Shown: piece by piece, positions 36,687 through 41,672 of the stretch | How the letters are laid out: each line of letters starts with the position of its first letter | How positions within the stretch are numbered: the first letter of the stretch is position 1 | Notes under the pieces: model-generated | Database searches by the model: none | The model's input: only the letters and a program-made list of their open reading frames with translations | What the model was told of the DNA's origin: nothing | Origin: a virus | Taxonomy: Duplodnaviria; Caudoviricetes | IMG/VR virus record: IMGVR_UViG_3300020161_002395 | Coordinates: 100,711-164,710 of that record | Strand: one strand, 5' to 3' | Length of the DNA: 64,000 bases | Program-made: the position numbers and the translations under genes

Positions 36687-36797
36687 TTATTTAAAAAAAA
36701 TATAAATAAAAAACTGGCGTTTTTTATGCATTTGAGCACTATTTTTGATAAGTAGTGTAAATATATTACAGCCTTGAAAATATCACAGGAGATTAAA

Positions 36798-37712
36798 ATG
36801 ACTGATAGAGCACAATTTGAAGCTATGCTTGAAGCGTTGATTAATGAAGATCAAGAAACAGCAAAAGAAATTTTCCACAACATTGTTGTTGGAAAATCAC
36901 GTGAAATTTACGAAGAATTATTAGAATCAGATTTCCCAGGAGAGGAAGAAGAGGAAGAAGAAACAGACATGGATTCTGAAGAAGATGATGCTGAAGATGA
37001 TTCAGAAAATCCGTTTGACTCTGATGACTCTGATGATGAAGAACCAGCATTCGGCGATGATGAAGATGATGGTGAAAGTGAAGGCGAGCTAGAAGATCGC
37101 GTATTAGACTTAGAAGATGCGTTAGAAGAATTGAAAGCTGAATTCGACCAATTGTTATCTGGTGAAGAAAGTGAGCCAGAACACGCTGATATGTTTGGTG
37201 GTGATGAAGAAGGTGATGAATTTGGTGGTGATGAATTTGGTGGTGAACCAGAAGACGAATTTGGTGCTGATTTAGGTGATGATGATGCGGAAGTTAAAGA
37301 AGTACATATTACACACCAATTTGTAAGAGAATCAGATGATGAATTCAATCAATTCATGGAATATGTAAATAAAGTTGCATTACCAAAACATGGTGATAAC
37401 GGTATTCAAAACAAATCAGTTATCGATAACATGAAAAATGATATGGGTGGAACAACTGCTAACATCGCACAAAACTTTTCTACAACATCAGGTGGTACAA
37501 AAGGTGGTTTAGCTAAACCTTCTACACAACTTCAAGATGGTGGAAACATCAATAAACCAGGTGCAAATGCAGGTAAAACCGCATTCAAAACAAAACAACC
37601 AGGTGGATTTGGTGACAATAAAGGTAATAAAGTAGTTGGTGCAGGTTCTGGTAAACCAAATTCTGTATCAGGTGTAAACAATAAAAGTTTAACCAAAAGA
37701 TTAGGAAAATAA
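36798..37712 (+). CDS. Acidic prohead core protein (gp67/68-like position)
   Basis: AGGAG RBS; very D/E-rich, between portal and protease. Confidence 0.65.
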   Translation: MTDRAQFEAMLEALINEDQETAKEIFHNIVVGKSREIYEELLESDFPGEEEEEEETDMDSEEDDAEDDSENPFDSDDSDDEEPAFGDDEDDGESEGELEDRVLDLEDALEELKAEFDQLLSGEESEPEHADMFGGDEEGDEFGGDEFGGEPEDEFGADLGDDDAEVKEVHITHQFVRESDDEFNQFMEYVNKVALPKHGDNGIQNKSVIDNMKNDMGGTTANIAQNFSTTSGGTKGGLAKPSTQLQDGGNINKPGANAGKTAFKTKQPGGFGDNKGNKVVGAGSGKPNSVSGVNNKSLTKRLGK

Positions 37713-37715
37713 AAT

Positions 37716-37931
37716 ATGTTATATCTCCGAGAAAACCTCAGTTTCAACGAAGCACAAATGATCGTTGAATCTGACGATAGAGAAGGTAAAACATTGCATA
37801 TGTCTGGTATCTGCATTCAAGGCGGTATCCGTAATGCAAATCAACGTGTTTACCCTGTGAGCGAGATTAGCAAGGCTGTTAAGACCCTTAACGATCAGAT
37901 TCAAAACGGTTATTCAGTACTCGGAGAATGA
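37716..37931 (+). pseudogene. Truncated 5' fragment of the prohead protease (probable original allele)
   Basis: 71 aa; last 47 aa are 43/47 identical to the downstream protease; stops at GE just before the VDHP motif. Confidence 0.8.
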
Positions 37932-38740
37932 ACATGAGAATGGGAATGTGTGGGAGATATAAAGACCAGTATTTGAGATCATATTCTGAATTTATATTCG
38001 CTGTATATCTTGATACTGTTTTACAGGTATCTTTCGTCACAGAACCATTCTCATTACAATCAGCAATATCCACTAAACGTAAAATTCCTGATTTTTTATA
38101 TAAAGATACAAAGTATAATATATCTACTATTGTTGAAATTAAAGATACGGATGAAAAGTTAGAAGAAGTTATATTAGATTATGCGACTAATAGTTATAAG
38201 AATATTCAGGATTATAATATCAGATTTGTTAATTTGAATAAAAAAGCAAAAAAACATATGATAATTACTATTATAAACACTATTGGTATAAATAATTGGA
38301 ATGAAATGTCAACTTCCTATAAAAAAAATTCTAAATCAACGGAATTTTATGGGTTTCCAGGGGAATTAAATCCTCGATATGGAATAAAGTTGACCGACGA
38401 AATTAAAAATAAAATTAAGAAATCATTACCATCGAAGCACGGAATGAATAACCCACATTATGGAAAAACACATTCTACTGAAGCAAAGATTAAAATAGGT
38501 TCTAAATGGCAAAATGATGATAAAAAACATAGTATGCAAAGAAAAGGTATGATAACTCATATAAATTCATTTAACGATACACAATATCAGGAATTTGTGA
38601 AATATGCAGATTCGGTGTTATCTGGAATTCCAATCATTAAACCTTCATTTGTTAATAATGCATATGCTATCAGTATTAATAAAATTAATTTATTATTTGG
38701 TGATGCGGAACTATTTAAGGAAGAATTAATACGAAGATGA
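37928..38740 (+). CDS. Homing endonuclease, PD-(D/E)XK (TnsA-N-like) with NUMOD3
   Basis: 'RSYSE...EPF...IPDF...IVEIK' and 'NPHYGKTHSTEAKIKI'; ATGA overlaps at both ends. Confidence 0.75.
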   Translation: MNMRMGMCGRYKDQYLRSYSEFIFAVYLDTVLQVSFVTEPFSLQSAISTKRKIPDFLYKDTKYNISTIVEIKDTDEKLEEVILDYATNSYKNIQDYNIRFVNLNKKAKKHMIITIINTIGINNWNEMSTSYKKNSKSTEFYGFPGELNPRYGIKLTDEIKNKIKKSLPSKHGMNNPHYGKTHSTEAKIKIGSKWQNDDKKHSMQRKGMITHINSFNDTQYQEFVKYADSVLSGIPIIKPSFVNNAYAISINKINLLFGDAELFKEELIRR

Positions 38741-39384
38741 AAATTTTATTACAAGAAACTATCGCACCAAATATGACACAATGTGTTTTGGAATCAAAAG
38801 ATGAAAATAATTTTCATGGTACACCAGAAAAAACATTATATATGTCTGGCATTTGCATACAAGGTGCGATCCGCAACGCGAATCAACGTGTTTACCCAGT
38901 TAGTGAAATCACAAAAGCTGTTAAAACGTTAAATGATCAAATACAAAATGGATATTCAGTGTGCGGAGAAGTGGATCATCCAGATGATCTAAAAATAAAT
39001 TTGGACCGTGTATCACATATGATAACTAATATGTGGATGGATGGTCCAAATGGTTATGGCAAGCTTAAAATCTTGCCAACCCCTATGGGACAACTAATTA
39101 AAACAATGTTGGAAAGCGGAGTTAAATTAGGTGTCTCCTCTAGAGGTTCTGGAAACGTCAGTAGTGATGGATCCAATTCAGTATCAGATTTTGAGATTAT
39201 CACAGTAGATATGGTAGCTCAACCCAGTGCTCCAGGTGCTTACCCAACACCAATTTATGAACACCTAATGAATACAAGAGGTGGTTATAATGCCTTTCGC
39301 GTAGCGCAAGAGGTGAAAGGTGATTCACAGGCGCAAAAATATCTCAAAGAGAGCTTATTAGGCATAATAAGTAATCTCCAATAA
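38737..39384 (+). CDS. gp21: Prohead protease, T4 gp21-like
   Basis: 'NANQRVYP', 'GEVDHP', 'VSH', 'LGVSSRGSG', 'DMVAQPSAPGA'. Confidence 0.92.
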   Translation: MKILLQETIAPNMTQCVLESKDENNFHGTPEKTLYMSGICIQGAIRNANQRVYPVSEITKAVKTLNDQIQNGYSVCGEVDHPDDLKINLDRVSHMITNMWMDGPNGYGKLKILPTPMGQLIKTMLESGVKLGVSSRGSGNVSSDGSNSVSDFEIITVDMVAQPSAPGAYPTPIYEHLMNTRGGYNAFRVAQEVKGDSQAQKYLKESLLGIISNLQ

Positions 39385-39396
39385 TAGGAGAAACAC

Positions 39397-40485
39397 ATGT
39401 TAGATGCATTAAACAAATTATTTGAAAGCAATGTGATTTCTGGAGAGATTAAAGAGTCAATTGAACAAGCTTGGGACCGTAAAATTTTAGAAAACCGTGA
39501 ACAAGTAAGTCAACAACTAAGAGAAGAATTCGCTCAAAAATACGAACACGATAAAGCAACGATGGTTGAAGCAGTAGATCACATGATCTCTGACCAACTT
39601 CGTAGTGAAATTGGCGAGTTTGCTGATGATCGTAAGCAATTAGCAGAAATGAAAGTTAAATATGCTAAAAAAATCACTGAAAGTGCTAATGTTATGAAAA
39701 CATTCGTAACACGTCAATTAGCATCAGAAGTGAAAGAATTGCACGAAGATCAAATGCAAATGGCAGGTAAATTTGGTGTATTAGAAAACTTCATTGTTGA
39801 AGCTCTAGCTCAAGAAATTACAGAGTTCTACAAAGATAAACAAGATTTGGCCGAAACAAAAGTAAGATTACTTCGTGAAGGTCGTAAAGAAATCAAAAAA
39901 GTAAAAGAACAATTTGTTCAACGTGCTGCGGTAATGGTTGAAAGTGTTGTGAATAAAGGACTACGTTCTGAAATTACATCATTAAAAGAAGACATTGAAG
40001 CTGCTCGTCGTCAAGAGTTCGGTCGTAAGTTATTCGAGGCTTTTGCTGCTGAATATCAGACCAGTTACTTGAATGAGAATTCGGAAACTGCTAAATTACT
40101 CAAAGTCATAGACATGAAAGATCAAGCGATGCAAGAAGCAGCGAAAGCTGTATTATCTGCAGAGAAGATTTTAGAAAGTAAACAAGCAGAAATTCGTATG
40201 TTGAAGGAATCTCAACAAAGAAAAGAAATCATGAGTGAATTGTTAGCTCCATTAAATAAAGAGCAACGTTCAATTATGGGCGAATTAATGGAGAGCGTAA
40301 AAACCTCAAAATTAAATGAAAGTTTCGAAAAGTATCTACCAGCCGTTATAGCTGGCAAAGCTCCACAAAAGAGACAGGCACTAGTAGAGGCTAAAGAAAT
40401 AACTGGAAATAAAACTTCCACAATCACTCGTAGCAGCGAAGCGGAATCTAATATCATTGATATTCGCCGTTTAGCTGGGCTTTAA
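39397..40485 (+). CDS. gp22: Prohead scaffold/core protein, gp22-like
   Basis: Glu/Lys-rich coiled coil between protease and major capsid; AGGAG RBS. Confidence 0.78.
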   Translation: MLDALNKLFESNVISGEIKESIEQAWDRKILENREQVSQQLREEFAQKYEHDKATMVEAVDHMISDQLRSEIGEFADDRKQLAEMKVKYAKKITESANVMKTFVTRQLASEVKELHEDQMQMAGKFGVLENFIVEALAQEITEFYKDKQDLAETKVRLLREGRKEIKKVKEQFVQRAAVMVESVVNKGLRSEITSLKEDIEAARRQEFGRKLFEAFAAEYQTSYLNENSETAKLLKVIDMKDQAMQEAAKAVLSAEKILESKQAEIRMLKESQQRKEIMSELLAPLNKEQRSIMGELMESVKTSKLNESFEKYLPAVIAGKAPQKRQALVEAKEITGNKTSTITRSSEAESNIIDIRRLAGL

Positions 40486-40502: not shown

Positions 40503-41672
40503 ATGTCAGAATTACTTAATGGCCGTTGGGCAGAAACTAAAGAAGCCCTATTAGAAGGTCTACAAGGCACAAAAAAATCAGTAATGGGTGTTACTTTAGA
40601 AAACACTCGTAAATATTTGGTGGAATCACCAACCGCTGGCGCGACATCAGCAGGTAACGTTGCAACTTTAAACCGTGTAATTTTACCAGTTATTCGTCGT
40701 GTTATGCCAACCGTTATTGCTAACGAATTGGTAGGTGTACAACCATTAACCGGTCCTGTTGGACAAATTCATACTTTACGTGTACGTTACTCAGATACAT
40801 CATCAGCAGCTGGTGTGGTAGCTGGTGAAGAAGCGTTAAGCCCATTCAAAATTGCGGAAGCATATTCTGGTAATACAGCATCTGGTAAAGCAGCTTCTAC
40901 AGCTACTTTGGAAGGACAAGCTGGTAACAGAATGAGCATCCAAATCTTGAAACAAACTGTTGAAGCGAAAACTCGTAAATTGAGTGCTCGTTGGACATTT
41001 GAAGCGGCTCAAGACGCTCAAGCTCAACAAGGTATTGATGTTGAAGCAGAAATTATGGCTGCTTTAGCACAGGAAATCACAGCTGAAATTGATCAAGAAA
41101 TCTTAGCTTCATTAAGTTCATTGGCTGGTGCAGCTACTCAAACTTATGACCAAGCACAAGTTTCTGGTACAGCTACTTTCGTTGGTGATGAACACGCTGC
41201 GTTGGCTATCCAAATCAACCGTGTTTCTAACTTAATTGCACAACGTACTCGTCGTGGCGCTGGTAACTGGGCAGTTGTATCTCCATTTGCATTAACTATC
41301 TTGCAATCTGCTACAACTTCAGCTTTTGCTCGTACTACTGAAGGTACTTTTGAAGCTCCAACTAACACAAAATTCGTTGGTACTTTAAACAATGCATTGA
41401 AAGTTTATGTAAACAGCTATGCAAACGACAGCACACCAATCTTAGTTGGTTATAAAGGCGGTTCAGAATCAGACGCAGCAGCGTTCTACTGTCCATATAT
41501 CCCATTAATGAGTTCTGGTGTTGTTCTTGACCCATCAACATTTGAACCAACCGTTTCATTTATGACGAGATATGGCTACGTGGAGCTCAGCAACACTGCC
41601 AGCAGCCTTGGGAATGCCGCCGATTACTTAGGTAAAGTTGCTATCACTGACGGAAACGTTAAATTTAGCTAA
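40503..41672 (+). CDS. gp23: Major capsid protein, gp23-like
   Basis: 'LVGVQPLTGPVGQI', 'VEAKTRKLSARWTFEAAQD', 'EITAEIDQEI', 'FYCPYIPL', 'TRYG'. Confidence 0.95.
   Translation: MSELLNGRWAETKEALLEGLQGTKKSVMGVTLENTRKYLVESPTAGATSAGNVATLNRVILPVIRRVMPTVIANELVGVQPLTGPVGQIHTLRVRYSDTSSAAGVVAGEEALSPFKIAEAYSGNTASGKAASTATLEGQAGNRMSIQILKQTVEAKTRKLSARWTFEAAQDAQAQQGIDVEAEIMAALAQEITAEIDQEILASLSSLAGAATQTYDQAQVSGTATFVGDEHAALAIQINRVSNLIAQRTRRGAGNWAVVSPFALTILQSATTSAFARTTEGTFEAPTNTKFVGTLNNALKVYVNSYANDSTPILVGYKGGSESDAAAFYCPYIPLMSSGVVLDPSTFEPTVSFMTRYGYVELSNTASSLGNAADYLGKVAITDGNVKFS

Follow-up and report, generated by a model that had tools for sequence, protein, structure and literature searches.

A putative endonuclease gene and a foreign 5' gene part inserted beside the catalytic-His codons of a phage prohead protease gene

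We analysed a 64-kb stretch of phage DNA (the window), which is the last part of a 164.7-kb IMG/VR virus record with an estimated completeness of about 45%, and in which the gene for the prohead protease is interrupted by a 1042-bp insert. The insert carries a gene for a probable PD-(D/E)XK-type endonuclease, followed by a new 5' part of the protease gene that is in frame with the resident 3' part and restores a full-length protease, with the resident 5' part left upstream as a stub. Comparison with insert-free relatives shows that the arrangement arose by one clean insertion into an ancestor that resembled the closest of them. We consider it likely that the insertion was the work of a free-standing homing endonuclease, through one-sided repair after a cut at the catalytic-His codons, a process that would sometimes leave a stub behind.

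Anatomy of the insert and its empty site

An earlier note on this DNA had described three coupled open reading frames (ORFs) at this position, namely a protease fragment, an endonuclease gene and a complete protease gene, together with flanking GGAGAA repeats and a diverged 141-nt duplicate, and all of these features are present as claimed (Table 1). The ORFs are coupled by ATGA overlaps at 37928-37931 and 38737-38740. The second copy of GGAGAA stands at the right junction (38965-38970), and the boundaries of the insert can be slid by 6 bp inside this repeat. The insertion point lies two codons ahead of the catalytic-His codon, beside the motif at which the note had placed it. The left GGAGAA doubles as a Shine-Dalgarno-like sequence 7 nt 5' of the endonuclease ATG at 37934; an alternative ATG would give an ORF of 270 aa (37928-38740), and the gene callers and all homologues use the ATG at 37934. 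Within the duplicate (37788-37928 versus 38830-38970), 110 of 141 nt are identical, and third codon positions hold 25 of the 31 differences. The encoded proteins agree at 43 of 47 residues, the codon changes being 23 synonymous and 4 non-synonymous, and the longest run of identity between the two 5' copies is 17 nt.

A protease-based scan of IMG/VR yielded 80 loci, and in every one of them (80/80) the protease gene is uninterrupted and encodes about 208-214 residues, with a stub-type start (MLYLRENLSFNEA...) that continues through ...LGEVDHP, which is the continuous gene that had been predicted for insert-free relatives. The closest of these relatives, L005, has flanks that are 98.6% identical to those of the window in DNA. 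Its first 213 nt match the stub at 210/213 positions and its last 414 nt match window positions 38971-39384 at 408/414, whereas over the common 141 nt the identity between the new 5' copy and L005 is 77%. Differences from L005 number 32/141 in the new 5' copy versus 6/414 in the 3' part (Fisher p = 3.5e-15). The stub is identical in all amino acids (100%) and in 98.6% of nucleotides to codons 1-71 of the uninterrupted gene in both L005 and a second relative, L008, and it gives a weak Peptidase_S77 match.

The L005-type empty-site sequence is GTACTCGGAGAAGTGGATCATCC, and at the position of the left junction L005 continues after GGAGAA with GTGGATCAT. Removal of 37929-38970 from the window yields exactly the gene arrangement of L005, and the intact gene that the note had reconstructed by this deletion is therefore one that exists. 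Since L005 matches both flanks and does not match the new 5' copy, the window differs from it by a single 1042-bp insertion and represents an L005-like ancestor plus that insertion. The stub is the resident, ancestral start of the gene and the start at 38737 is the newcomer; the opposite polarity, with the 38737 N-terminus as the ancestral one, is not what we found, as the insert-free relatives all have the stub-type start. The 5' part carried by the insert restores an intact protease gene, in line with the proposal that the element avoids lethality by bringing its own 5' gene half. Neither junction retains the entire empty-site sequence, and the resident half-sites survive apart, at the stub junction and the chimeric junction.

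Empty-site relatives share freshwater samples, which would be the setting for an assembly chimera of two co-occurring phage strains. Both junctions, however, are bridged by single Logan contigs from 3 runs in 2 studies, which extend over 37400-39209 or beyond with 0-1 differences, from samples that may include the source of the window. The exact stub, endonuclease and chimeric protease sequences were moreover called on 24, 21 and 20 contigs, respectively, from three data sources (JGI, Logan and ENA). Misassembly, which the note had listed as a possible undoing of its proposal, is not borne out by these contigs, and we attach almost no probability to it. In a run from a different study (X7), the contig of a relative goes from ...GGAGAA directly into GTAGATCATCCAGAT, which is the empty site. 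The stub would be in frame with VDHP once the insert was removed, as expected if an intron or an intein were spliced from RNA or protein and the stub and the 3' part together made the real protease. Against this, coding sequence fills the insert, the stub ends in a TGA, and the separate ORF downstream encodes a complete protease of natural type from its own start. No Rfam intron family matched across 37000-40000 even at E <= 1, and no Hint/intein domain was found in the Pfam scan. We therefore agree with the note that the insert is a non-splicing one, and splicing of either kind strikes us as extremely improbable.

Table 1. Coordinates of the inserted element, the parts of the protease gene and the neighbouring head genes in the window
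Feature	Position	Strand	Remarks
Stub: resident first 71 codons of the prohead protease gene, with TGA created at the junction	37716..37931	+	ends ...GYSVLGE
Left junction GGAGAA, last resident codons (Gly-Glu)	37923..37928	+	read from the sequence
Inserted foreign DNA, 1042 bp	37929..38970	+	missing from L005, 79 other relatives and the contig of the X7 relative
Endonuclease gene (putative), 268 aa	37934..38740	+	N-terminal PD-(D/E)XK-type nuclease (probable), two NUMOD3, C-terminal helical domain
Foreign 5' part of the protease gene, 78 codons	38737..38970	+	arrived with the endonuclease gene
Complete chimeric prohead protease gene, 215 aa	38737..39384	+	Peptidase_S77
Right crossover interval, donor-type TGC codon to T of recipient-type GTG codon	38965..38972	+	
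Resident 3' part of the protease gene	38971..39384	+	catalytic His (VDHP) and Ser (GVSSRG) motifs
Very acidic protein	36774-37712		upstream neighbour of the protease
Scaffold-like protein	39397-40485		
Gp23-family major capsid protein	40503-41672		Pfam E = 3e-98

Origin of the new 5' part

The chimeric protease encoded at 38737-39384 matches Pfam Peptidase_S77 (PF03420) with 85.2 bits against a cut-off of 27. It is a clear homologue of T4 gp21 (Peptidase S77, PDB 5JBL; phmmer E = 6.5e-14) and stands, as in T4, in the order protease, scaffold, Gp23 capsid. It differs from gp21 in its low sequence identity, as judged by eye from the alignment, and in its setting, a giant uncultured freshwater phage. 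The VDHP and GVSSRG motifs both align to 5jbl_A, with the His of VDHP opposite chain position 104. We assume that these motifs hold the catalytic residues, by analogy with His85 and Ser140 of T4 gp21.

The search for the origin of the new half was limited to residues 1-80 of the chimeric protease. It retrieved a distinct set of proteases, about 215 residues in length (P0007-P0023 and others), which have the same longer, different N-terminus, and the nearest of which carry the signature SVCGE followed by ADHP. The new half is 7 residues longer than the resident half and has this other N-terminus as well as the Cys in SVCGE. It is 77% identical to P0007 and P0008, compared to 64% for the 5' half of L005 (equivalent to the stub), while the order is reversed for the 3' part, which is 99% identical to L005 and 87% to P0007. 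In a tree of 5' parts, the new half falls inside the 215-residue group and the stub groups with L005 and L008, with moderate support. Judging from the sequences, and mainly from the contrast in DNA identity, the length difference and the signature residues, we conclude that the new half is a foreign allele and that its apparent recoding is ordinary synonymous divergence. The description of this half as a synonymously recoded copy of the resident one has to be given up accordingly, its nearest matches being P0007 and P0008.

At the junction (marked here by a slash), chimeras read CGE/VDHP, the nearest 215-residue proteins CGE/ADHP and the 208-residue relatives LGE/VDHP. The combination of a donor Cys with a recipient Val in CGE/VDHP therefore confines the right crossover to the short interval given in Table 1. 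The same CGE/VDHP junction is joined to at least three different 3' parts (P0006, P0129 and P0130), a finding compatible with spread of the cassette and with subsequent recombination downstream. P0130, a chimeric protease from an 802-bp ENA contig, has the same foreign 5' part and junction, and its last ~75 residues differ and are more like those of the 215-residue group, a pattern of additional mosaicism downstream.

A different endonuclease gene, of 221 aa, was seen between the protease and scaffold genes of several relatives (L008:4624-5289, L013:4618-5283, and also L010, L014 and L016). Its product has a GIY-YIG-like start (YLYKWTN..GKWYIGS) and NUMOD3, and is assigned to PHROG 314, 'homing endonuclease'. 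In L008 and L013 the final ten protease residues are SLVNIINGLK rather than SLLGIISNLQ, and the positions at which L008 departs from the window are concentrated there. Two separate endonuclease landing sites appear to border the protease gene.

The endonuclease family, its usual position and a second stub

Pfam recognized NUMOD3 alone in the product of the inserted endonuclease gene (E = 1.2e-6). A profile search over 1.84 billion cluster representatives returned 27 proteins at E <= 1e-30, of which almost all were full-length relatives with a size of about 220-300 residues; matches beyond those 27 covered the NUMOD3 part only. NUMOD3 was detected in 26/26 family members, and R17, S18, E21, E39, P54-D55 and E70-x-K72 are invariant in the 26 aligned members. 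The window's gene is unbroken, and its product has all of these invariant residues. In an AlphaFold model (pLDDT 76), the N-terminal domain gave weak fold matches to TnsA, followed by Bax1, SdaI, R2 endonuclease, MspJI and VRR-NUC, all of which are PD-(D/E)XK nucleases; even the TnsA match (1t0f_A) was weak, with Z 5.5 and an rmsd of 4.3 over 118 residues. Tn7_TnsA-like_N was found at E = 0.0033 in 2/26 members, below the curated cut-off, and Foldseek gave no match at E <= 0.001 against the PDB. The invariant E...PD...ExK set corresponds to the classic PD-(D/E)XK pattern, and together with the fold matches it indicates that the encoded protein is probably a PD-(D/E)XK-type endonuclease. Its modules, a probable catalytic domain, then NUMOD3 and a helical domain at the C-terminus, are arranged as in I-TevI-like enzymes. 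No HNH domain was found by a Pfam scan of the cassette proteins and the 26 family members.

Homologues of the endonuclease were absent from the results of the single-protein and alignment A1 searches of viral contigs, from genome contigs, from cultured phage genomes (tblastn) and from PHROGs. Eight loci (L131-L138) were found with alignment A3 in IMG/VR, and L130 comes from a JGI metagenome. In these nine other fetched loci, from about six further lineages, an S77 protease gene directly follows the family gene (9/9), and with the window included the family adjoins the protease gene in 10/10 loci. The gene order is acidic protein, endonuclease, protease, scaffold, and the endonuclease and protease genes usually overlap. 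In five lineages, nothing resembling a protease fragment precedes the endonuclease gene. Because of these stub-less lineages and the fixed position, we conclude that the family ordinarily exists as a free-standing gene that occupies the gap ahead of the protease gene. The stub-bearing cassette, which the note had taken for the form of the element, is thus not its usual one, as the five other lineages have an intact protease gene and no stub. In L130 (446-1317) the endonuclease homologue is split into overlapping ORFs (446-1105 and 1102-1317), from a decaying copy or a sequencing frameshift, and in L136 (2688-3310) the protease gene downstream of the endonuclease matches as three pieces in three reading frames, from frameshifts or sequencing errors.

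One locus, L137, does start within a protease fragment (...IFVQGGIKNHNQRVYPVREIAKAV), which runs into seven unrelated codons and a stop and is followed by a family member 37% identical to that of the window and then by a complete 213-residue protease. The fragment matches the corresponding region of the locus's own protease at 57/72 nt, and the differences are mostly synonymous. Its near-identical twin, L138, is on a contig that begins inside the endonuclease gene, so that the stub region lies outside it. The L137 stub ends 16 codons upstream of the stub position in the window, and we regard it as a second, independent stub event. The left junction is therefore not a fixed site.

A further locus, L139, is a relative of L137. 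When L139:3-560 and L137:898-1539 were compared from protease residue 29, all 41 mismatches fell within the initial 158 nt, which extend as far as the Pro of GECDHP, and the other 400 nt were identical (p = 7e-25). The 5' part of L139 is a third allele, unlike both the stub and the new half of L137, which points to repeated swapping of 5' parts at the catalytic-His motif. The boundaries in the window and in the L137/L139 pair therefore place the border between swapped and unswapped sequence within ~10 nt of the catalytic-His codons in two distant lineages.

The surrounding head module has a T4-like order, in which the acidic protein is followed by the feature studied here, the scaffold-like protein and the Gp23-family major capsid protein. 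The gene at 36774-37712 has a TTG start and encodes a product of 312 aa with long Asp/Glu-rich runs. It is the most variable gene of the module, far above the neighbouring head genes, with protein identities among relatives of 39-83% (with indels) compared to 79-87% for the protease. The nearest cultured relatives of the window phage are giant phages of Pseudomonas, Salmonella, Vibrio and Agrobacterium, with 67-75% DNA identity in short stretches, and the runs that hold the window sequence are freshwater and lake metagenomes, none of those listed being on record as RNA. A consensus scan for promoters and terminators gave nothing exceeding shuffled expectation. Sub-threshold Rfam C/D-box matches at 37029-37083 were weak and were taken as chance.

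One-sided homing, its alternatives and related systems

Starting from the observed anatomy, empty site, foreign new half, fixed family position and second independent stub, we infer the cleavage position and the repair route, as well as immunity and current mobility, from sequence comparison. Three features of homing genes are found here: a probable nuclease domain joined to DNA-binding modules, the NUMOD3 motifs; presence or absence at a fixed locus, with the gene missing from L005 and 79 relatives and adjacent to the protease gene in all ten loci; and co-conversion with a sharp boundary, seen at the right crossover of the window and at the same motif in L137 versus L139. In giant freshwater phages of the T4-like kind, the family gene normally precedes the prohead protease gene directly. 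During a mixed infection, its product would cut the endonuclease-free protease allele of this phage's ancestor no more than a few bases from GGAGAA/GTGGATCAT. Of the two broken ends, the right one would invade the protease gene of the donor, and repair synthesis would copy the donor 5' part and the endonuclease gene leftwards. With a similar upstream gene, the product would be the plain intergenic form with a converted 5' part. The upstream gene is poorly conserved, however, and the left end may for this reason lack homology past the endonuclease gene. Where upstream homology fails, the left end would be joined illegitimately at the break, possibly via the 6-nt GGAGAA, and the resident 5' part would stay as a stub. 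Microhomology between GGAGAA and the element's own leader in this left join is possible only.

The outcome would be a resident 5' stub, an endonuclease gene and a foreign 5' part in frame with the resident 3' part. The protease would be intact and the original target sequence would no longer be in one piece, and if recognition spans the junction, the separation of the half-sites would protect the genome. With no identical run above 17 nt between the two 5' copies, deletion by homologous recombination should be hindered. Immunity to cleavage, resistance to excision and late expression via coupling, as put forward in the note, are plausible. Resident-type homology on both sides, in the stub and in the 3' part, could in principle allow the whole to home as a unit into empty-site relatives.

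Several points weigh against an origin by one-sided homing. The donor arrangement is deduced from family members more distant than the P0007-type donor group. Approximately unbiased (AU) tests on the short protein halves (78 residues in the new half) were not decisive, with p = 0.40 and 0.056. The left junctions of L137 and the window, being 16 codons apart, do not alone mark the cut. A GGAGAA leader precedes the family gene in just one other member, L130 (GGAGAAT at the same place), and we did not count the microhomology as evidence. Finally, the nuclease assignment leans on the invariant motif and on weak matches (Z 5.5; Pfam E = 0.003 in two members).

The layout could also be a recombination scar, in which an illegitimate crossover of co-infecting phages duplicated the protease 5' part, with the endonuclease gene as a passenger. 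Just one illegitimate and one homologous exchange would be needed, the group is highly mosaic (for example P0130 and L139), and cleavage by the encoded protein is a prediction. A scar would not, however, account for an endonuclease family that is bound to one locus in every fetched case, for a second independent stub that involves a family member of 37% identity, or for the fact that, in two lineages, divergent sequence gives way to identical sequence at the same catalytic-His motif, and we judge it unlikely. The note had gone further than a homing gene and proposed a dedicated self-repairing cassette, with the endonuclease gene and a re-spelled 5' half as the selected form and the synonymous changes selected for immunity and against excision. 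The new half, however, fits a natural 215-residue group in length, N-terminus and signature residues, and ancestry explains its divergence; the majority of the family's genes are simply intergenic and have no stub, and the two stub junctions differ. Although the loss of the whole empty-site sequence from both junctions, the shortness of the longest identical run, the occurrence of one junction with three different 3' parts and the resident-type homology on both flanks all agree with such a cassette, we consider it quite unlikely, and a purpose-built, re-spelled design is not needed to account for the data.

Endonuclease genes that bring a replacement gene end are known from fungal mitochondria, where mobile endonuclease ORFs (mORFs) create gene hybrids, as in atp6, atp9, cox2 and nad3 of Glomus (PMC3630166); a hybrid atp6 of Allomyces macrogynus is credited there to Paquin et al. 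1994. As in the window, an endonuclease ORF lies inside a gene next to a foreign, mostly synonymously diverged gene end that restores a full-length hybrid, and the native end remains as a remnant that matches close relatives, the contrast between the two ends being the basis for a foreign origin (PMC3630166). In the window, the in-frame foreign 5' end restores the full length, the stub matches L005 and L008, and the new half groups elsewhere. The two systems are mirror images, since mORFs replace the 3' end and leave the remnant downstream, whereas the window has a replaced 5' end and an upstream remnant. They also differ in host (mitochondrion versus phage), in the enzyme, which is LAGLIDADG or GIY-YIG for mORFs and probably PD-(D/E)XK-type with NUMOD3 in the window, and in the ORFs, which are fused in frame in mORFs but separate and overlapping here.

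Among phages, one-sided homing with microhomology junctions was shown experimentally in T4 by Parker et al. 1999, as summarised in PMC2988022. Intronless homing in T4 resembles the window in having an intergenic endonuclease gene, present or absent in close relatives, with co-conversion of flanks (PMC2988022). In the known cases of this type, the gene is intergenic or the target is divided into two functional parts (nrdA in Aeh1, genes 39 and 60 in T4 and gene 43 in phage 25; PMC2988022); none is described with a duplicated stub beside a restored gene, and the nuclease families are also other than that of the window. The MobA element of T4-like phages consists of mobA and the gene 60 bypass cassette, according to a preprint (bioRxiv 10.1101/2022.08.31.505936) that cites Bonocora et al. 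2011. It is likewise a phage endonuclease element inside an essential gene at its own cleavage region, where a short homologous segment, homR, stands in for the deleted stretch of the target and the target site is destroyed. MobA, however, is an HNH enzyme, and its target gene is split into two polypeptides with added tails and depends on ribosomal bypassing, whereas in the window one ordinary ORF is restored and the replaced part is kept as a stub. We rejected a MobA-type element for the window, which lacks an HNH domain and has a complete protease without a gap as its downstream ORF. Literature searches, with most subscription journals outside their coverage, found no phage account of an endonuclease gene with a replacement gene end and a stub.

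The principle is thus known from fungal mitochondria, whereas the setting, the orientation and the endonuclease family are new, and the case is real, recent and well documented. It provides a clean before/after pair in phages, with an empty site in flanks of 98.6% identity, candidate donor proteases and a second independent event, and it shows how a free-standing endonuclease gene can enter an essential gene via a replacement gene end, with neither intron nor intein. It also defines a small, uncatalogued family of endonucleases (probably PD-(D/E)XK-type, with NUMOD3; ~27 clusters at 50% identity) whose target region can be predicted. The fixed border at the catalytic-His codons, at which alleles of a core head gene are swapped, is of consequence to phage phylogenies and gene calling, both of which are misled by stubs and chimeric genes. 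Building on one-sided homing, it is a tentative and somewhat doubtful further step to see the stub-bearing cassette as an actively homing unit and no dead-end scar, intron-like without splicing, which would copy itself into any empty-site phage by way of its resident-type flanks and whose diverged duplicate would keep the protease working, block re-cleavage and resist deletion. If this were true, replacement of the gene start would be a general third way, beside introns and inteins and so far undescribed, for endonuclease genes to reside inside essential phage genes.

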